Source: an uncultured archaeon
GTDB taxonomy: Archaea; Thermoplasmatota; Thermoplasmata; Thermoplasmatales; Thermoplasmataceae
NCBI GenBank assembly: GCA_000965745.1
Contig: CP009479.1
Span: forward strand, 512,001-576,000
DNA length: 64,000 nucleotides
Direction: 5' to 3'
Shown here: in pieces, positions 15,812 through 51,625 of the stretch
Layout: every line of letters starts with the position of its first letter
Numbering within the stretch: the first letter of the stretch is position 1
The notes under the pieces: generated by a model
Seen by the model: only the letters and a program-made list of their open reading frames with translations
The model's database searches: none
What the model was told of the DNA's origin: nothing
Made by a program: the position numbers and the translations under genes

Positions 15812-17197
15812 TCACTGTATGTAAAGACCCCTCAGTCTCATGTGCGGGCCACCCATCCATACATCAACACCCTGCTCCGGATCGCCTTTTCCGCAGGTTC
15901 CCGCGTTGAATTGCAGATCACTGCCTATTGCGTCAATGGAACTGTAGAAATTTATTGTGTTGGTCTCTATTATTGGTCTCTTTACCCTTCCGGTGAGATC
16001 CCCGTTTTCTATGAAGTATGCTTCCTTCCCGACGTACTTCTCGTTGAATCTGATATCATCAATGTTCCATTCAGTGAATGACTTAATGTATATGCCTCTC
16101 CTGATTCCGTCAAACAGTTCATCGAATTTATGGTCTCCAGGTTCGATGTATGTTGTACTCATTCTGGCAAGCGGCTCAAGGTTCCATGAGCCTGACCTTC
16201 CGCCTCCGTTTGATTCCACGCCAAGGCGTGCTGCACTCTCCCTGTTGAGTATATATTCATTCGTCAGGCCGTTCCTGTAGAGGTATCTCTTTCTGGCCGG
16301 GATACCTTCGTCATCATACTTGTAATACCCATAGCTCTTTGGCATGGTGGGATCGTCGACCACACTTACCATGTCCGATCCTATCCTGAAATGATCCGGC
16401 TTTCCTGCCAGGAATGATTCCCCTGCCTGAGCACCTTCCCTGCCCAGGATTCTGTCATATTCAGCAGGGTGCCCGCAGGACTCATGCGCAACTATACCTG
16501 AAATTTCAGGCCCGACTACCACGTCGAATTTTCCAGGATTTGGCCTTGGAGCTACCAGGCTTTCCCTCAGATCCCTGAGATCGTTGGATATCCTGTCTTC
16601 AAGATGCAGCCCATCTATAACCTCATATCCGCCCGTGCCGCCAAATTCCTCGGCGGACTGTTCAAATTCACCGCCCTCCATTACCCCTGCCAGGTAAAAA
16701 TATGACACCCTGGAGGTCTCGCCCTCTATTCTTGAGCCAGCGGAATTCTCATAAATCTGCCTTATCTTCTTGTCCCCGACCGCATTCATCCTCACCGCAG
16801 CGTCGAATGATTCCTGCAGCTTGTCCATGTCCTTCACGATCTCAATGCGATCATCTATGGGCACATCCTCAATTTTCCTTTTGCCTTCAACTTTCCAGGA
16901 ATCTCTGATTGCCTCCCCCTCGTATAAGCTGTTCTTTCCCGGGAAGTGAGAGTGCTTGAGGGCTTCGCCAATCAGCTCTTTTGCACGGTCCCAGTCCTCC
17001 GAATCCACATAGGCCATGCTGATTGACTCGTTCACAACCCTTACCGCGTAGCCTTCCTCCTTGACAGAAGCTGTTCCCTCGAAAATACCATTTCTGTAGG
17101 ATACACCCCTTGAATCCAGGGACATGAACCTTGCCTCTGCGTACCTTGAGTTCCGGGAAGCGTAGTCCAGGAGCTTGTCAAGGAGCTCGCCGCTCAT
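15812..17197 (-). CDS. tldD: TldD-family metalloprotease
   Basis: HESCGHPAE, YDDEG, ARMSTTYIEPG, C-terminal CGKG. Confidence 0.92.
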   Translation of the reverse strand: MSGELLDKLLDYASRNSRYAEARFMSLDSRGVSYRNGIFEGTASVKEEGYAVRVVNESISMAYVDSEDWDRAKELIGEALKHSHFPGKNSLYEGEAIRDSWKVEGKRKIEDVPIDDRIEIVKDMDKLQESFDAAVRMNAVGDKKIRQIYENSAGSRIEGETSRVSYFYLAGVMEGGEFEQSAEEFGGTGGYEVIDGLHLEDRISNDLRDLRESLVAPRPNPGKFDVVVGPEISGIVAHESCGHPAEYDRILGREGAQAGESFLAGKPDHFRIGSDMVSVVDDPTMPKSYGYYKYDDEGIPARKRYLYRNGLTNEYILNRESAARLGVESNGGGRSGSWNLEPLARMSTTYIEPGDHKFDELFDGIRRGIYIKSFTEWNIDDIRFNEKYVGKEAYFIENGDLTGRVKRPIIETNTINFYSSIDAIGSDLQFNAGTCGKGDPEQGVDVWMGGPHMRLRGLYIQ

Positions 17198-18294
17198 GTG
17201 CTGCCTTTCTCCTTGTACTTCTTCAGCCTCTTTTCATATGCGTCAAATATTTCAGAAAGCACTTCACCGTAATTCCACCCGGAATAATTTTCGGCCAGAA
17301 CTATGGGTTCGGAAATGAGTTTTGTCCTGATTGAGTACTTGCTAACGCCCTCCCTGTGGTATTTCATTACGTGGACTTCCAGTTTTCCGTAGGACTGGTT
17401 GGTGAGGTTTGCAAACTTAGAAGTGAACTTGCTCGCAAGGAAGTATGTTATGTCATAAAGATCTGTTTCGTAGGGGGTGAGGCCGCTGATAGAGATCAGG
17501 ATTCCCTCGTCTTTGCTGTCTGTCTCAATGATTTCAAGAATGTCCCACAGGTCTATCACACCGACAACCTTGTCGGAGTCGTCCACTACGGGAAGCATGT
17601 GGAGCTGCTTTTCAGTCATCAGCTTTGAGGCCTGGGAAATGCTGTCGGTCTTCCGTACCGAGAAAGGATTATCCATGATCGAGGCGCTTGTCACCTTCAC
17701 CTTCTCCCTTTCTCCCCTTACTTCTCCAACTGTGGTCTTGCTCTTGTCCCGTATGATCATGTCCATGATGTCATCGAGCCTTAGAATTCCCTTGAGCATC
17801 CCCTCCTTGGAGACCACGGGTATCTCATACTCATACAGTCCGCGTATCTTTTCAGCAGCAGAGAGTATATCCTCGTCCACCTTCGCAAGAACGGGATCTG
17901 TTGTGGCGATATCCCTCACCTGCAGGTCTGCCGTAATAATGCTGTCTATATTCCTTACAATATCTGTTTCAGACACTATTCCCACGAGTTTTCCCTTTCT
18001 CAGGACTGGCAGAGCAGGAAGCCCGGATTCCTTGAGCTCTCCTACAGCAGCGAGCACATCCTGCTTCTCAGAAAGCTCTGGCGTCTTGACAGCGAAGTTC
18101 CTTGCCTTCGATTTGAGCCTGACACTCTTCCTTCTCATCAGTTCCCTGTAGTTTATTGCACCGAGATAGGTGTTCCCGTTCACCACAGGCAGGTGATGAA
18201 TGCGAAGATCACGCATTTTCGCTATGGCTTCCGATATCCCGTCATCACCATTCAGGTATACCGGGTCCTTTGTCATTATCTCTTCCACTTTCAT
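17194..18294 (-). CDS. Four-CBS-domain protein with C-terminal HPF/RaiA-like domain (HibA-type ribosome hibernation factor candidate)
   Basis: Four CBS repeats (HHLPVV, ALPVL, EIPVV, MLPVVD) then ~100 aa with beta-alpha-beta-beta-beta-alpha pattern ending in a basic helix (SEIFDAYEKRLKKYK). Confidence 0.75.
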   Translation of the reverse strand: MKVEEIMTKDPVYLNGDDGISEAIAKMRDLRIHHLPVVNGNTYLGAINYRELMRRKSVRLKSKARNFAVKTPELSEKQDVLAAVGELKESGLPALPVLRKGKLVGIVSETDIVRNIDSIITADLQVRDIATTDPVLAKVDEDILSAAEKIRGLYEYEIPVVSKEGMLKGILRLDDIMDMIIRDKSKTTVGEVRGEREKVKVTSASIMDNPFSVRKTDSISQASKLMTEKQLHMLPVVDDSDKVVGVIDLWDILEIIETDSKDEGILISISGLTPYETDLYDITYFLASKFTSKFANLTNQSYGKLEVHVMKYHREGVSKYSIRTKLISEPIVLAENYSGWNYGEVLSEIFDAYEKRLKKYKEKGST

Positions 18295-18300
18295 GCCCGA

Positions 18301-19470
18301 TCACTCACAATACTGGATAGACAGTTCTGAGACTATCTTCCTGACTTCATCCTTGACGTCTCCGCCCTTCATTGCTTCCGCCATCAGGGGGCCTACCCTC
18401 TCGATGTCCCTGATGCCCATCCGGGTTACCTCAGCTGATCCTATCCTTCCTTCCCTGTCCACGATCATGCCGTTTGCCTCCAGCTTCTTGCTGAATTCCA
18501 GGAAGCTAAGGCCCATTTCCTTGAGTTTTTCACTGTTAAGAAGGCTTTGGTGAGACTCTGAGTACCATGGGGCGTGATCCACAGGTATCCCGCTTTCGTC
18601 CATGGACCTGGCGAGCTTTTTTGTGTTTGATACGACATTTGCGGCATATTCCTTTCCGTACTTTTTCATCTCCTCAAGTGCGACGCCTAGAGCTGCAACC
18701 CTGGAAATGTGGTAATTATCCATGGTTTTCCAGATGAGGCTTTTTCGGACTGAGTCCATGATGTGCCTGTCGTTGGTAAGAACTATCCCTCCCTGTGGGC
18801 CGAAGAAAGTCTTGTGGGTTGAGCCGTAGAGGACGTCGCAGTACTCCAGCACATCTGGCTGGAACTGTTTTCCCGCGATCAACCCCATAACATGCGACCC
18901 GTCGTAGGCGATCAAGGAATCGAACCTGTCTGCGATCCTCCTTATCTGCTTCAGGTCGTAAGGCTTGACGAAGAAGGACTGGCCGAGCACTATGAGCTTC
19001 GGGCTGATCTCGTCCATCACCTTCTCGAAACTGGCAAGATCAATTTCCTGCCTGCCCCCGTTGAAAGGTATGTAATAGCTCTGAAACCCGTACATGTGCG
19101 GAAGGTAGCCCTGGGCATATCCTGTGTATCCCCCATTCTTCTCGGCTACTGCCATTATGCTTTCCCTCTTTCTGATGAGCCCCAGGAGGACAGCAGAGGC
19201 TGCAATATGTCCTCCAATAGTCCTCACTTCTGCATACCTTGCCCCGTAAACATCGCAGGCAAGGCGTTCCACCTGTGCCAGGAGCTCGGTTGAGTAGCGT
19301 GTGCCTCCGTAGGCGTCATCACTGTCAATAACAAGCGAATACCTTGAAGCCATGTCGGATGAAAGTGCCTCCCTGGCCTTCTGGCTCAATACATTCTCAG
19401 ATACCTGCAGGTTCAGCGTGGCCGCCCTATAGCTGTTATGATTTCTAACAATATCCATGACATCTGTCAT
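18301..19470 (-). CDS. glyA: Serine hydroxymethyltransferase-family PLP enzyme (possibly threonine aldolase-type)
   Basis: LNLQVSEN, YDGSHVMGLIAG, PLP Lys in GSTHKTFFGPQGG, RIGSAEVTRMG; YAEG and GGHLTH motifs altered. Confidence 0.75.
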   Translation of the reverse strand: MTDVMDIVRNHNSYRAATLNLQVSENVLSQKAREALSSDMASRYSLVIDSDDAYGGTRYSTELLAQVERLACDVYGARYAEVRTIGGHIAASAVLLGLIRKRESIMAVAEKNGGYTGYAQGYLPHMYGFQSYYIPFNGGRQEIDLASFEKVMDEISPKLIVLGQSFFVKPYDLKQIRRIADRFDSLIAYDGSHVMGLIAGKQFQPDVLEYCDVLYGSTHKTFFGPQGGIVLTNDRHIMDSVRKSLIWKTMDNYHISRVAALGVALEEMKKYGKEYAANVVSNTKKLARSMDESGIPVDHAPWYSESHQSLLNSEKLKEMGLSFLEFSKKLEANGMIVDREGRIGSAEVTRMGIRDIERVGPLMAEAMKGGDVKDEVRKIVSELSIQYCE

Positions 19471-19563: not shown

Positions 19564-19576
19564 GAGAATATTTAAC
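19564..19576 (+). promoter_or_regulatory. Archaeal BRE/TATA-like promoter for candidate ncRNA
   Basis: gagaatatttaac, TATA-like element ~25 nt before the first base of the folded region (19598). Confidence 0.45.
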
Positions 19577-19597
19577 ATTTTTGAGTTGTATCATTCA

Positions 19598-19815
19598 GGA
19601 AATCTGCCTTCAAGGAGACCCGGTTGAATTTGGAAACGGGTTGATCCATACGGCTTGCCCGCGTATGGCAGTGTTGGAACTATGCCCCGGGGCAGTACCT
19701 CCTTCCGATGCCTCGAAGTCTCCTCCCTAATGCCCTGGGCCATAGCTTCCGGCAGGCTGTATGGAATAGGTTATTGAAAGGAAACTTTCCACTGCCAGAG
19801 GCTCTTCCTCTCCTC
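19598..19815 (+). ncRNA. Candidate structured non-coding RNA (~215 nt), family unknown
   Basis: Nested stems 19598-602/19786-790, 19607-613/19774-781, 19645-659/19751-765 (15 bp, 2 G-U), 19676-684/19741-750, 19686-694/19731-739 (1 G-U); bulge 19666-673 complementary to 19790-797; GC-richer than flanks; no credible ORF. Confidence 0.7.
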
Positions 19816-19880
19816 ATGCCATAAAATTATGGGTATGGTACCAAAAAGAATTATTAGGCGTACGGAGTTAGGATGTTGTA

Positions 19881-22301
19881 ATGCAGATTCAGATGAGGAT
19901 AATTACTGCGTCATACAGAAGAGAGGACGTAGTTGTGGAGCTTTACGGCAAGACCAGGGATGGAGAGTCTGTCACAGCCCTTTACTACGGATTCAAGCCA
20001 TATTTTGACGTTGTTGAGCCTGATGAGCTTTACATAAATTCAATCAAGCAGCATCCCGAATTCATCAGGATGGAGGAGAAGATACTCTGGGACGAAGGAT
20101 CCGACAAGAGGGTAGTCAGAATATACATCAAATACCCGTGGAAAGTTCCGGAATTCAGAAAGGATTGCCAGTTCAGGGTCCTCGCCGCAGATATTCCTTT
20201 TCATCACAGGTTCATCTATGATTTTGATCTCGGTTCATGCGTGGAGATGGAATGCGAGCCTGCAGATGAAGAGAAGGGGAAGTATACAACAGACATCGTT
20301 GTGAGAATGAAGAGCGCAGGGACCGTTGAGGCCTTCAATCCAGTCCTGAAAATTCTAAGTTTCGACATAGAAAATGCCATTGTGTTTGATGGCTCAGAAG
20401 ACTATGGCAGGCTCCTGATGATAGGGTACTCCATAGCAAAGGGGGAGGAAAACAAAAAGGGGAGCATCTATGGAGATGAAGAGAGGATAATAAGGGAATT
20501 CATCGAACTGGTACACGAAGAAGACCCCGACGTAATAACCGGATACAACATAGACGGCTATGATCTTCCCGTCCTGGAGTACAGGGCCAAGAAGTACAGG
20601 ATACCACTCAGGATAGGAAGAGATTACAGTCCACCCACGAGGATAATGGGGCAGTTCTGGAGGCTGCATGGGAGAATAGTTAACGACACATGGTGGAGCG
20701 TGAAGAGAGTTCTCCATCCAAAACATGAAACTCTCAATTATGTCGCAAAAATGCTTCTTGGAGAAGGGAAAGACAACATCAACAGGCTCAAGATAGAGGA
20801 GGAGTGGGAGAACAGGAGAGACGACGTCATAAAGTACTGCATCAAGGATGCTGACCTGACCCTTCAGATATACAGGAAGATTAGGATTCTAGACAGGAAC
20901 ATGGATATGTCCACCGTCACGAAGCTCCCACTTGATGATGTTACAAATGGAGGGACCAGCAACTATGTTGACTCCATACTGATAAGGCGCGCCGACAGGG
21001 AAAACATAGGAGTGCCAATGACAACCAGGTCGATGAAGCAGGATGTCATCGAGGGGGGTTATGTCCATTCCGTAGAGCCTGGCCTTTATGATTTTGTCAT
21101 AGTGCTCGACTTCAAGAGCATGTACCCTTCGATGATCATGAAGCACAACATCTGCTTCACCACCCTTAACGAGAAAGGGGCAATCGTGTCCCCGACCGGC
21201 ATAAGATTCCTGGAGAAAAGTGAGAGAGAGGGCCTGATCCCGAGAATTCTCAAAGACCTCATGGACGAACGTGACCAGGTAAAGAAGAAAATGAAGAATG
21301 CCAGGGACGATGAAGAGAGGGATTACTATGACGGTGTCCAGGGAGCGTTGAAGATCCTTATGAATACATTCTACGGGGTCCTTGCCTCGTACTTCTACAG
21401 GTTCACTAATGTACAGATTGGAAGTGCCATAACAGCCTTTGCCAGAACTACCATCAAGGATGTCATTTCAAAACTTGAAAATGAGAGTTTCAATGTGATA
21501 TACGGGGATACCGACAGTGTCTTCATAGAGTCCGGCCAGACCACCGAGGAAGATACCATAAAGATGGGGCATGATCTCAGTGAGAGGCTTTCTGCGGAAG
21601 AGAGCATATCCCTCGAGTTCGAGAAAGTACTGAACCCGTTCTTCTCCAGCGGCGCCAAGAAAAGGTACATCGGGAGGATTATATACCCTGATGATCAGAA
21701 AGGGGAGACTCTCGTAAGAGGCTATGAAGTCAGAAGAACAGACTCCTTTGACCTGCAGAGTGAGACTCTTTCAAGACTCTTCGAGTATGTGCTGGACCGG
21801 GATGTGGAAGGGGCGGTCAAGTATTCAAGGGACATGGTCGAAAGGGTGAGGAAGGGAGATGAATCCATACCCATTGAAAAGCTCGTTATCTCAAGAAGCG
21901 TAAAGAAATTCGGGGACTACAAGGATGGAAAATCACTCGCGAACGTAAGGGTAGCCCAGAAGCTCATAGAAAGAGGTGAAACATTCATCCCCGGAATGAA
22001 GGTCTCATGGATAGTGGTAGACCACAAGAAGAACCCCCAGGTCGTGGAGCCCTTCATTGACGGGAGCACCTTTGAATTCAAGCCTGACTGGGAATACTAT
22101 GCCAGAAGGGTGGAGGAAACACTGAACCGTGTCCTCGAAGCATTCAAGGAAGAGATAAACATTTCACAGAAAGATCCCGGGCAGCAGACCCTTACTGGAA
22201 TGTCAGATGAAGAACTGCCTTCAGTGCCTAGCAGCAACTCTGCTCAGAACAATGAGAAAAAAGAGAGGAAAACAGGGAACATCACCCTGGACAGTTTCTG
22301 A
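19881..22301 (+). CDS. polB: Family B DNA polymerase with 3'-5' exonuclease, no intein
   Basis: SFDIE, GYNIDGYD, YCIKDA, DFKSMYPS, KILMNTFYG, YGDTDS, KKRY. Confidence 0.97.
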   Translation: MQIQMRIITASYRREDVVVELYGKTRDGESVTALYYGFKPYFDVVEPDELYINSIKQHPEFIRMEEKILWDEGSDKRVVRIYIKYPWKVPEFRKDCQFRVLAADIPFHHRFIYDFDLGSCVEMECEPADEEKGKYTTDIVVRMKSAGTVEAFNPVLKILSFDIENAIVFDGSEDYGRLLMIGYSIAKGEENKKGSIYGDEERIIREFIELVHEEDPDVITGYNIDGYDLPVLEYRAKKYRIPLRIGRDYSPPTRIMGQFWRLHGRIVNDTWWSVKRVLHPKHETLNYVAKMLLGEGKDNINRLKIEEEWENRRDDVIKYCIKDADLTLQIYRKIRILDRNMDMSTVTKLPLDDVTNGGTSNYVDSILIRRADRENIGVPMTTRSMKQDVIEGGYVHSVEPGLYDFVIVLDFKSMYPSMIMKHNICFTTLNEKGAIVSPTGIRFLEKSEREGLIPRILKDLMDERDQVKKKMKNARDDEERDYYDGVQGALKILMNTFYGVLASYFYRFTNVQIGSAITAFARTTIKDVISKLENESFNVIYGDTDSVFIESGQTTEEDTIKMGHDLSERLSAEESISLEFEKVLNPFFSSGAKKRYIGRIIYPDDQKGETLVRGYEVRRTDSFDLQSETLSRLFEYVLDRDVEGAVKYSRDMVERVRKGDESIPIEKLVISRSVKKFGDYKDGKSLANVRVAQKLIERGETFIPGMKVSWIVVDHKKNPQVVEPFIDGSTFEFKPDWEYYARRVEETLNRVLEAFKEEINISQKDPGQQTLTGMSDEELPSVPSSNSAQNNEKKERKTGNITLDSF

Positions 22302-48197: not shown

Positions 48198-49442
48198 CTA
48201 TTTTTGTGTTTCAGGCCTGGAAATCTGGCGAGGAGGCTTTATCTGACTTATTTTCTGTATGTAGTCGTCTCCGAAGTGCATCCTGAATAGCCACTCATAT
48301 CCGCCCTTGAGGGATGACCAGTAAATTCTTTCCATGAATTTCTTTTCGACATAGTTTATTGTCGACGGAAATTTCTTTTCGACAGGCCGTTCATAGGTTC
48401 CCACAACAAAGGTCGCCTGATGGTATCCTGTCTCCATGGAACATTGCATTCTACCAGTGAAGAGATACTTGTCTGTCCCTCCCTTGTAATCCTCTATTAT
48501 GTTGCTGGCCACTGTGATGGCCTGAAGATGGGCTTCCACACCTGCTTTTGAAATAGGAATGTTCGTGTTGTCTCCTATTGAGAATGCATAATCGTAATCC
48601 TTTATGTGCATATCCCGCTTGTCTGTGATAACCCAGCCATACTTATCCACAAAATCCGATTTCTTCACAACATCCACTGTTCTGTGCGGAGGTACCAGGA
48701 TCAACTCGTCGTATTCTAGTGAGTCTCCCTCCAAAGACAGAATCTCTTTTTTCTGAGGATCAACATAGTCGAGGTTAAACCCTGTTACGATGTCTATGTT
48801 CCTGTCCTCGTACATCGGCGTTATCACTTCACTGATCGGTTCCGCAGGGTACGCCCTGAGATATGGAGTTACAAACGTGATTTCTACCTTTTCCCTCATT
48901 TTGCGTTTGGCAAAGAATTCGTCAGCCATGAATGCGCCCTCGTTTGGTGAGGGGGGGCATTTGTACGGGAGACCTGCGATGCCGACGACTATCTTTCCAG
49001 ATTTAACCCTGGACATTCTCTCGTAAAGCTCAGCAGATTTTGAGGCGTTGGTATGAAAGTCATGATTAGCTTCGGAAAGGCCGGGGATCTGGCCGGGGTC
49101 TGTCAAACACCCGGTTGCAACAACAATGGTGTCGAAATTATACCTGTTCACGCTTTTTTCAGTTATGACATACCGGTTTTCTATGTCTATAACTGAACAG
49201 TTCTCATGAACGAGCTTCACACCCGGATAGATCAACTGGGTCAGTGACCTCTGCATCCTGCTCGGCCGGGAACCCCTGAATGCCACTCCCAGGTATCCCG
49301 GTTGAAATTCATGGTTTTGCGAACCATCAAAAATTGTTATGGAAATCCGGCCATTCCTCAACTCGTCTCCCATTTCCTTGGCAAGTTTGCTTGCCAGTAT
49401 AAGGCCTCCTGCCCCTCCGCCAACTATCGCAATATCGTTCAT
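48198..49442 (-). CDS. sqr: Sulfide:quinone oxidoreductase family flavoprotein
   Basis: IVGGGAGG, FQPG, VATG, KCPPSP.E, IGD, SKAG, second Cys in QCSMETG. Confidence 0.85.
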   Translation of the reverse strand: MNDIAIVGGGAGGLILASKLAKEMGDELRNGRISITIFDGSQNHEFQPGYLGVAFRGSRPSRMQRSLTQLIYPGVKLVHENCSVIDIENRYVITEKSVNRYNFDTIVVATGCLTDPGQIPGLSEANHDFHTNASKSAELYERMSRVKSGKIVVGIAGLPYKCPPSPNEGAFMADEFFAKRKMREKVEITFVTPYLRAYPAEPISEVITPMYEDRNIDIVTGFNLDYVDPQKKEILSLEGDSLEYDELILVPPHRTVDVVKKSDFVDKYGWVITDKRDMHIKDYDYAFSIGDNTNIPISKAGVEAHLQAITVASNIIEDYKGGTDKYLFTGRMQCSMETGYHQATFVVGTYERPVEKKFPSTINYVEKKFMERIYWSSLKGGYEWLFRMHFGDDYIQKISQIKPPRQISRPETQK

Positions 49443-49495
49443 TTTAACTCACTCCCTCTTTTTATATGGGCATAGTAGAGGACTGGGGTGATTTT

Positions 49496-49735
49496 TCACC
49501 TCGTCCTTTTCGAAACTATTCTTATCTCTACTTTGTAGACATCATTTTCCTCAGTGATGTTGAGTAGCTCATTCTTGGTCCTCTCGCACCAAGCCTTAGT
49601 ATCCGCTTTCACTCCCGGATCGGTAGCAAGAAGTTCTATCACATCTCCATTGCTGGATTCCCTGTAAGCCCTTATCAGATCGGTAATAGGGCCGGGGCAG
49701 GAAGTACCCCGGCTGTCCACCTTCAGAGTAGTCAT
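49496..49735 (-). CDS. tusA: TusA-family sulfur carrier
   Basis: DSRGTSCPGP, ATDPG, WC. Confidence 0.9.
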   Translation of the reverse strand: MTTLKVDSRGTSCPGPITDLIRAYRESSNGDVIELLATDPGVKADTKAWCERTKNELLNITEENDVYKVEIRIVSKRTR

Positions 49736-49746
49736 TCTTAACACCC

Positions 49747-50178
49747 TTAGATGAAGATTACCTCTCTGTCTTCGCACATCTGCAGAAATGCTGCTGCCCC
49801 AACAACATCATCAACAATCGGGTCAAGATCATTCTTCGTGTCTATCTTGAATGCGCCGGCCATCATTGAGCAGACATAGACCTTTACATCCCCCATTTCC
49901 TTGGCTTCTTTGAGCATATCGTACCAGGATGGTGCTTTCATCTCCTCCATTCCCTTCATTAGATCCGGGACAAGGTCCTCAAATTCCTTCGGCATTCTGT
50001 TAACCTTCTTGTATCCGTCTTTTCTGAATCCCTGAATTGCCCACCCTGTCACAAATATAGATACAGGCATCTCGAGATTAACCGCCGACTGTGTCAATAC
50101 ACCCAGCGGAATGAACTTATCCGCTGTTCCTGAGAACATTACAAAGTTTAGGCCTTTTTTTGCCATAGAGTCCACCAT
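49747..50178 (-). CDS. DsrE/DsrF-like sulfur relay protein
   Basis: IFVTGWA, VYVCSM, VGAAAF; operonic with tusA and sqr. Confidence 0.88.
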   Translation of the reverse strand: MVDSMAKKGLNFVMFSGTADKFIPLGVLTQSAVNLEMPVSIFVTGWAIQGFRKDGYKKVNRMPKEFEDLVPDLMKGMEEMKAPSWYDMLKEAKEMGDVKVYVCSMMAGAFKIDTKNDLDPIVDDVVGAAAFLQMCEDREVIFI

Positions 50179-50268
50179 AAAACTAGTTCCAGAAATCTAT
50201 TAATCTGGGCACCTTATGGTTAACGTACCGTGCAGGGTTCCACCGCTAACATTCCTGCATGATGGCTT

Positions 50269-51420
50269 CTATGAAAAAAGTTCTTTCGACACTCCTTTCA
50301 GCCTATCCTCCCTAATTAATTTTACCGTGTCCTTGAGTTCCTTAGTCTGTCGGGGTTTACTTGCCCTTGCAGACATAGCCTTCATCTTCTTCTCTGTCAG
50401 TGCATCAACGTGATCAACGAATTCAACACCCCTGGAAAGCATTGTCCATATGATCTCCAGAAGCTTCCGGGCAACTGCAACAATAGCCCTCTTCATGCCA
50501 ACACGTCTGACAATGCTGAGATACTTCTTCTTCATCCTTCCGGAGTACTTGATGATGTGATGCGCTGCATTCACGAGGATGAAGCGTATCATGGAAGGTC
50601 CGTGCTTCGTTATATGACCACGGTAATCAGTTCCTCCCGACTGGTCCTGTTTCGGCACCAGGCCGGCATAGGATGCAAGCTTCTCCTTAGATTCGAAGCG
50701 TGATACATCATCGATCTCTGAGACGATTGCAGCAGCTGAATAGACATTTATCCCGGGGATTGTCATGAGCAGCTTCACGTCGTTCCTTTCATGGCACATT
50801 CTTGCGATCTCGTCCTCCATTGTTGATTCCCGATCCTTCAGCTCCCTTATCCTTTCAATCATGTCTGAAACGATTATCCTGTCTGATGCACTCATCTTTT
50901 CAGAGGATCTCTCAATCTCACTGAGGCCACGCTTCCCGAAGATATCCGTGGCATCTATGGAGATGCCGTATCTTCCCAGTACAGCATGAACGCGGTTCTT
51001 TATCTCCGTGACCGCATCGCCCAGGGATTTCCTGTACCTGACTATGGAGCGTAGGTCATCTGCCTCCTTTGATGGCAGGTGCACTTCCGGCAATTCTCCC
51101 AGTCTCAGGAGCTTAGCTAGCTTGTATGAATCTTCCTTATCGTTCTTCTTCGAGGTGTTGAAGATCAGTGAAAGCTTCACAGGATCTGCCATGTGCACGG
51201 AGAATCCCATGTCCCTCAGCATCCTGGTGCAGTACTTTCCTGCGGTGGACACTTCCAACGCAATCTCAGGTTCCAGGTAAAGATACCGTTCCATGAACAT
51301 ATTCCAGGAATCGGTGTCATTGCCCATCCTGAACTGCTGTTCAATTGTGCCGCCATTTCCCATTTCCGTAACATACACGCTATTTTTATGTACGTCGCAT
51401 CCAATATAGATTACAACCAC
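50269..51420 (-). CDS. IS110 DEDD recombinase
   Basis: GCDVHK, ALE, KKNDKED, LMTIPGI, YAGLVP..DQSGG (Ser), AVARKL. Confidence 0.95.
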   Translation of the reverse strand: MVVIYIGCDVHKNSVYVTEMGNGGTIEQQFRMGNDTDSWNMFMERYLYLEPEIALEVSTAGKYCTRMLRDMGFSVHMADPVKLSLIFNTSKKNDKEDSYKLAKLLRLGELPEVHLPSKEADDLRSIVRYRKSLGDAVTEIKNRVHAVLGRYGISIDATDIFGKRGLSEIERSSEKMSASDRIIVSDMIERIRELKDRESTMEDEIARMCHERNDVKLLMTIPGINVYSAAAIVSEIDDVSRFESKEKLASYAGLVPKQDQSGGTDYRGHITKHGPSMIRFILVNAAHHIIKYSGRMKKKYLSIVRRVGMKRAIVAVARKLLEIIWTMLSRGVEFVDHVDALTEKKMKAMSARASKPRQTKELKDTVKLIREDRLKGVSKELFS

Positions 51421-51625
51421 CTCCTATGTGGTATGTGAGAGTTTAAAGTCGGAGAATGCTCGACAGTCTTCTATTCACCCTTGTTTCAGGGTAGTATGTC
51501 GAGACGAAGGGCAGCAAATCTCGGGTACGATCTCACAGATCAAGCCATCATACTGCTGCCACTCCGACTCTCACGCTATCATCGTCATGATAGCGTGGAC
51601 AAAAGAGCTTTTTTCATTGACATCT
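50271..51625 (-). mobile_element. IS110-family insertion sequence (~1355 bp)
   Basis: TCT core at both junctions (50268-70, 51623-25); subterminal inverted repeats atgaaaaaag (50271-80) / cttttttcat (51608-17) extending imperfectly to ~22 bp; structured upstream non-coding region. Confidence 0.9.
51445..51597 (-). ncRNA. IS110 bridge RNA candidate
   Basis: 5' 11-bp hairpin, closing stem, two stem-internal loop-stem arms; loop AUGAUGGCUU (51551-51542) equals insertion flank 50259-50268. Confidence 0.82.

Follow-up and report, generated by a model that had tools for sequence, protein, structure and literature searches.

A strand-biased RNA-like fold between glyA and polB of an uncultured archaeon, and its tentative reading as a stranded IS110-family mini-element

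A variable gap between two conserved promoters

The DNA analysed here is a stretch of 64,000 nucleotides (the window, whose positions are used below unless genome positions are given) from a complete 2.23-Mb archaeal genome, whose closest named protein relatives are from the Thermoplasmataceae. The same region was recovered as identical contigs in two sequencing runs, possibly of the source samples, which indicates that the assembly is sound. At the locus considered, a 410-bp intergenic gap lies between the start of a glyA-like gene (19470, − strand) and the start of polB (19881, + strand), with a conserved promoter towards each edge:

18301-19470 (−): glyA-like serine hydroxymethyltransferase gene, left neighbour
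19569-19584 (−): BRE-TATA of the glyA operon, conserved; read on its reverse face (19564-79, +; 6.5 bits), it could initiate transcription near 19598
19841-19856 (+): BRE-TATA of polB, conserved
19881-22301 (+): family B DNA polymerase gene, right neighbour

The glyA-like gene shares an operon, conserved in the genus, with tldD, pmbA and a gene at 17194-18294 (−) that encodes four CBS domains and a weak HPF/RaiA (S30AE) domain, the make-up of a HibA/AHA-like hibernation factor.

An earlier note on this DNA had proposed an independent sRNA in the gap with a TATA-like box of its own, and a separate promoter for polB. The polB promoter is there as described. The other box is mainly the promoter of the glyA operon, scoring 10.5 bits on the − strand against 6.5 on the + strand here, and 7.6-10.5 bits on the − strand across every relative scored, while its + face reaches 7.3 bits in one relative (G002) and 0.1-4.6 bits in the others. 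The 6.5-bit reading exceeds the lower quartile of tRNA promoters, and firing of a single archaeal TATA box in both directions is established (PMC6640164), so a + strand transcript from about 19598 is plausible; alone it would not show function, and passive transcription from the reverse face of the glyA box may occur.

The stretch between the two promoters is single-copy and species-specific, and the gap that holds it is hypervariable. Both promoters are kept in all 10 relatives compared (three congeners and seven from sequencing runs), and the middle of the gap is kept in none, so the conservation expected of an independent sRNA is missing at this locus in 10 of 10. In its place are 54-113 nt in seven relatives, about 360 unrelated nt (up to 365) in two, and a 4.2-kb cassette of four genes (HTH-NnrS-DUF2249-hemerythrin) in G002. 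The cassette (L043:2605-6061; HTH_10, NnrS-like, DUF2249/cupin and hemerythrin genes) has an 11-bp direct repeat at its two ends. The two ~360-nt inserts (L178 and L181) are unrelated, have no strong fold and found no match in this genome. An inverted likeness between the stretch and the L181 insert (score 60.5) was rejected, as no pairing is kept and unrelated intergenic DNA scores equally.

No homologue was found by DNA search in 60 relatives, 168 genomes of the order and 400 of the phylum, which returned only 20-29-nt matches, nor with a one-sequence covariance model of low sensitivity in genomes of the family (102), the relatives (39) and the class (149). Scanning viral, metagenome and genome collections for its pattern gave one real match, L353, which is the same species at the same locus, and plasmid and phage searches for a homologue found nothing. 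No RNA data set was among the sequencing runs listed as containing the stretch. Four-fold sites are 36% identical between G000 and G002, near saturation, which limits what this absence of homologues can show. The possibility of a multicopy MITE, raised in the earlier note, is contradicted by the single copy and by the lack of terminal inverted repeats beyond a 5-nt end repeat. As for coding potential, five reading frames had no Pfam or PHROG match, and two longer searches gave nothing credible.

Fold of the stretch and known RNA families

The predicted secondary structure consists of a hairpin, a long rod and a second hairpin followed by a strand that could pair back into the rod:

19617-19642 (+): 5′ hairpin, 6 bp plus loop
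19645-19765 (+): 33-bp rod, with a 15-bp basal helix, a bulge, an 18-bp upper helix and an apical internal loop with a weak hairpin
19776-19789 (+): 5-bp hairpin with a GAAA tetraloop
19790-19797 (+): possible pseudoknot partner of the bulge

Much of this had been drawn before. The 15-bp helix (19645-59/19751-65) was recovered with pair probabilities of 0.86-1.0, as was the further apical helix, put at ~18 bp and found as 18 pairs (19676-94/19731-50; 0.86-1.0). The rod does carry a 16-nt one-sided bulge, and an exact 8-nt complementarity joins 19666-73 to 19790-97; the significance of this pseudoknot match ranges from p 0.006 in a narrow test to 0.047 when any loop is allowed. The terminal GGAAA/TTTCC helix of the earlier drawing is not supported. 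Its pair probability is 0.006, forcing it worsens the fold by 3.8 kcal/mol, and it uses base 19790 of the pseudoknot strand and would disrupt the GAAA-capped 5-bp hairpin at 19776-89, which was absent from that drawing. Ten same-species contigs are identical save for A19779G in one of them, which retains the affected pair of this hairpin as G-U.

Three pairs of the rod (19652-19758, 19655-19755 and 19689-19736) are G-U on the + strand and none is on the − strand, as the earlier note had pointed out, a bias that is weak by itself (1 in 8). The fold of the core (19645-19765) has a z of −4.8 on the + strand vs −2.7 on the − strand, local z values varying with the reporting threshold. Among 1382 intergenic strands of the genome the rod ranks 25th by fold, and shuffled intergenic DNA yields 6-11 that equal it, which puts the share of chance among folds of this kind at about 20-35%; with an added energy cut, five genomic folds stand in the top class vs 0-2 from shuffles. 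The fold is thus unusual, yet alone it is not beyond chance. Comparable stability is seen in four other intergenic folds, namely a CRISPR array (twice), the non-coding end of an IS110 element and a strongly folding non-coding locus among mobile-looking genes (L455, genome about 621,550-622,800).

The absence of RNase P, SRP and common riboswitch signatures was borne out. An Rfam scan, also proposed in the note, gave no match for the stretch and none to riboswitches or ribozymes, and the RNase P and SRP RNAs were located elsewhere in the genome. A box C/D guide RNA was looked for, and the stretch lacks a C box as well as a D box on the + strand; the K-turn and ACA box of an H/ACA guide RNA were not seen by eye. 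An imperfect slippery heptamer (19631-19637) stands 7 nt ahead of the rod and gives a weak match to an Rfam frameshift site (E 4.9), with neither a start codon nor a homologue in support. A frameshift signal, an attC site and an HDV or hammerhead ribozyme were dropped, their core motifs being lacking as judged by eye. Together these results support a strand-biased, RNA-like fold of no catalogued family.

Loop strands, element ends and IS110 bridge RNAs

IS110 bridge RNAs read donor and target DNA through loop strands, and they are 150-250 nt long with a 5′ hairpin (PMC11208160), a size and a 5′ hairpin that the stretch shares with the RNAs of this group (IS621; seekRNA) (PMC11208160, PMC11187229). 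In IS110/IS1111 bridge RNAs, two loop regions match the target and donor arms around a 2-nt core (PMC11208160, PMC11187229), and a comparable arrangement can be proposed here when the ends of the stretch are placed as follows:

19610-19611 (+): left copy of a TC core, direct repeat
19612-19815 (+): proposed 204-bp mini-element, from left end to right core; species-specific insert absent from relatives
19664-19670 (+): bulge strand TATGGCA, candidate target guide; reverse complement of the right flank 19817-23; shares bases with the pseudoknot strand 19666-73
19699-19704 (+): apical 5′ strand CTCCTT, candidate donor guide; reverse complement of the element's left end 19612-17
19719-19725 (+): apical 3′ strand TCTCCTC, candidate donor guide; same sense as the right end plus core 19809-15
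19746-19749 (+): CTTC, candidate second target guide; same sense as the left flank plus core 19608-11; 4 nt, paired in the predicted fold
19814-19815 (+): right copy of the TC core

The rule of polarity is that a 5′ strand is the reverse complement of the downstream arm and a 3′ strand has the same sense as the upstream arm plus core. As a positive control, IS110 elements of the Thermoplasmatales were extracted and their guide-to-flank polarity was examined. In the family to which the genome's own IS110 belongs, the target loop matches the right flank with its 5′ strand (10 nt in this genome) and the left flank plus core with its 3′ strand (up to 7 nt), and a second local subfamily (L464) has the same polarity over 11 and 10 nt. 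The four strands of the stretch match the four junction arms over 7, 4, 6 and 7 nt in this same polarity. The bulge match to the right flank lies one base off the core, and the two donor-arm matches (6 and 7 nt), noticed post hoc, abut exactly at the predicted circle junction. The TC dinucleotide repeated at both ends of 19612-19815 is by itself common by chance.

The test of these matches allowed either polarity, either loop assignment and any boundary. The summed junction score of 23 was equalled by one dinucleotide shuffle in 60,001 and by one other pair of genomic windows in 55,660; of the six top random genomic draws, five fell on the element itself. Without the weakest (4-nt) strand, 6 of 45,801 shuffles scored as well. 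The test was devised after the matches had been seen and after many other ideas had been tried, with strand windows and a 1-nt skip of our choosing, and the result is therefore discounted to a larger p of perhaps about 0.01 (1 in 100). The CU-rich matches are of low complexity and not fully independent, and opening all guide strands costs 13 kcal/mol. With respect to the ends, likeness to the closest genome stops near 19611, the proposed left boundary, and the 8-mer at 19623-30, just inside that end, is shared with G002 and argues against it. The GC content of 19612-19815 is 55% vs an intergenic mean of 41%.

We tentatively read the stretch as a stranded, non-autonomous mini-element of the IS110 family, the body of which may well be a bridge RNA whose target and donor loops are nested; a protein-free mini-transposon of this kind is more likely than a regulatory RNA of the host. 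In this reading the donor, a circle joined at TC, would have inserted where the left flank, TC and the right flank meet, guided by the RNA of the stretch bound to a DEDD recombinase supplied in trans. The element is now probably immobile, because the sole intact IS110 of the genome uses an AG core and another junction. In favour of such an origin, the gap takes up foreign DNA, to judge from the unrelated 54-365 bases and the cassette found in relatives, and the peers of the stretch among the top folds include the IS110 end, the CRISPR array and the locus near mobile-looking genes. A more specific version is possible but doubtful: an archaeal mobile element of 204 bp that encodes no protein and consists of a bridge RNA only. 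A single rod would hold both its target and its donor loops, the pseudoknot may protect the target guide, and the element would come from an unsampled TC-core IS110 clade and be served by a recombinase in trans.

While the polarity of the loop-to-arm matches is that of the local IS110 elements, other traits differ. The stretch has no transposase gene and a possible pseudoknot over one guide, unlike IS110/IS1111 bridge RNAs, and it nests its loops in one rod with a one-sided bulge, where the local families have a two-arm layout. Its core is TC rather than AG, and it has no sequence likeness to the three local IS110/IS1111 RNA families, ranking 111-690 of 1242 in comparisons with them. A covariance model run on about 50 IS110 loci gave no match, the element holds no ORF, no cognate DEDD recombinase was found, and neither a second copy nor an empty site was seen. 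With no sequence likeness, second copy, empty site or recombinase, the stretch is described as one that may work like a bridge-RNA element and is not filed as a member of the group.

A documented precedent for a protein-free RNA module dependent on IS110 is ssr9 of ISPpu9 in Pseudomonas putida (PMC12288879). Like the stretch, it is a dinucleotide-bounded RNA unit, and an IS110 transposase acting in trans is its proposed mover. Unlike it, ssr9 is multicopy, adjoins its transposase and has been shown to circularise, whereas the stretch is single-copy and archaeal with no partner found; the RNA of ssr9 is described as regulatory, not as a guide (PMC12288879).

The one intact IS110 of the genome (window about 49,300-51,600, −) has a textbook bridge RNA in its non-coding end (about 51,400-51,600), and eleven Thermoplasmatales homologues share a common scaffold, variable guides and the AG core. 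Two more archaeal IS110/IS1111 subfamilies, sampled as left ends (L460-L469) and as regions downstream of the transposase (L470-L475), have distinct RNA scaffolds, one with two loop-bearing arms and the other a long multi-branched rod, and form a ready set for a covariance model. A resemblance of the stretch to the right end of the L460-L469 subfamily failed a profile test.

Competing explanations and significance

The strongest competitor, which we nevertheless consider unlikely, is a chance fold, either in neutral spacer or in a gene that has decayed, such as the hemerythrin gene (its 3′ half) found in the G002 gap. The share of equally stable folds that arise in shuffles and the failure to find a homologue fit this explanation, and the stretch aligned colinearly with that 3′ half at a score of 55, a value reached by 1 of 1000 shuffles; at the divergence of the G000-G002 four-fold sites, a remnant would be barely alignable. 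Unrelated intergenic DNA equals that alignment score in 5 of 1696 segments, however, and profiles of 29 hemerythrins give an E of 0.12 at best, with no DNA match. Chance would also have to produce the G-U bias, the GNRA hairpin, the 8-bp match and the four junction matches.

A non-coding remnant of another kind of mobile element (a group II intron domain, a TnpB guide scaffold, a retron-like RNA or a single-strand DNA origin) is improbable. The genome does contain two group II introns and six TnpB-type matches, and the high GC content, the hotspot location and the mobile or defence peers among the top folds would suit such an origin. Neither the group II intron 5′ GUGYG nor domain V nor the profile of domains I-III matched in the stretch, and 5-8% of controls align with an intron as well as the stretch does. 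Likewise, no IS200/605 TnpB right-end hairpin and no likeness to local tnpB 3′ ends were found, the local TnpB ends being different from the stretch. No reverse transcriptase lies nearby, and as DNA both strands fold alike and weakly (−25.8 and −24.4). The two group II introns (L454 and L431, genome about 1,299,800-1,301,800 and 710,600-712,500) carry maturase genes, one of them frameshifted, and their 5′ ends read GCACG where GUGYG is usual, a trait shared with several Thermoplasmatales copies.

The main idea of the earlier note can be recast as a young, species-specific, trans-acting sRNA whose open CU loops would pair with ribosome-binding sites and whose transcription would begin at the glyA promoter, on its reverse face; we give this reading a low probability. 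Its 6.5-bit promoter reading and the bidirectionality of archaeal TATA boxes (PMC6640164) allow it, and there is a precedent in sRNA162 of Methanosarcina (PMC3510493), an intergenic, structured RNA of about 200 nt, the open pyrimidine-rich loops of which can pair with ribosome-binding sites. Since archaeal sRNAs are mostly poorly conserved (PMC4152357), non-conservation is compatible with a young sRNA. In contrast to sRNA162 and similar archaeal sRNAs, the candidate promoter of the stretch is shared with glyA and no homologue was found. An independent, conserved sRNA with a promoter and closing stem of its own is not supported.

The CU tracts that had prompted this idea are present. ACCUCC is found in the apical loop at 19697-702 and is the core of the 16S tail in this genome, although its occurrence is commonplace (77 of 1368 intergenic 215-nt windows, 5.6%). 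The apical 3′ loop is 93% unpaired, and binding is predicted to 157 start regions vs 52-83 for shuffles, but binding to Shine-Dalgarno sites is expected of any CU tract. The best predicted duplex (−40.9 kcal/mol) spans the treS/maltokinase junction and is matched by 1 of 107 shuffles; its p is about 0.02 uncorrected and about 0.07 after correction for the four segments scanned, and the site is not kept in two congeners. No T-tract terminator was found for such a transcript. The CU loops match the element's own ends more specifically than they match Shine-Dalgarno sites, and these matches the sRNA leaves unexplained. The treS/maltokinase junction belongs to a bacterial-type glycogen/trehalose cluster (L422, genome 1,160,800-1,176,300) with treS, a maltokinase-like gene and probably glgB, glgE and glgX; treS is also present in two congeners.

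A cis-acting leader or insulator limiting the transcription that reaches polB from the reverse face of the glyA promoter, or else a mimic of 6S RNA or of the 16S tail, is very improbable. The lack of a terminator between polB and a TATA box that can fire both ways, and the HibA-like factor in the neighbouring operon (PMC13324472), would suit these roles. Against them, polB is served by a conserved promoter of its own and ten relatives manage without the element, the one-sided bulge is not the central two-sided bubble of 6S RNA, Rfam gives no match to the stretch, a copy of the anti-Shine-Dalgarno is unable to pair with the 16S tail, the longest same-sense 16S match is 9 nt, and nothing was found in support of the mimic ideas of the earlier note.

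Were the IS110 mini-element reading false, the stretch would be an orphan fold in a hotspot of gene traffic, of little general interest. If it is true, it shows that a bridge RNA is able to move on its own account as a minimal parasite, and archaea would have provided a new bridge-RNA layout and core. It would also offer a simple rule, that of loops matching their own junctions, by which such orphans may be spotted among unexplained intergenic folds.
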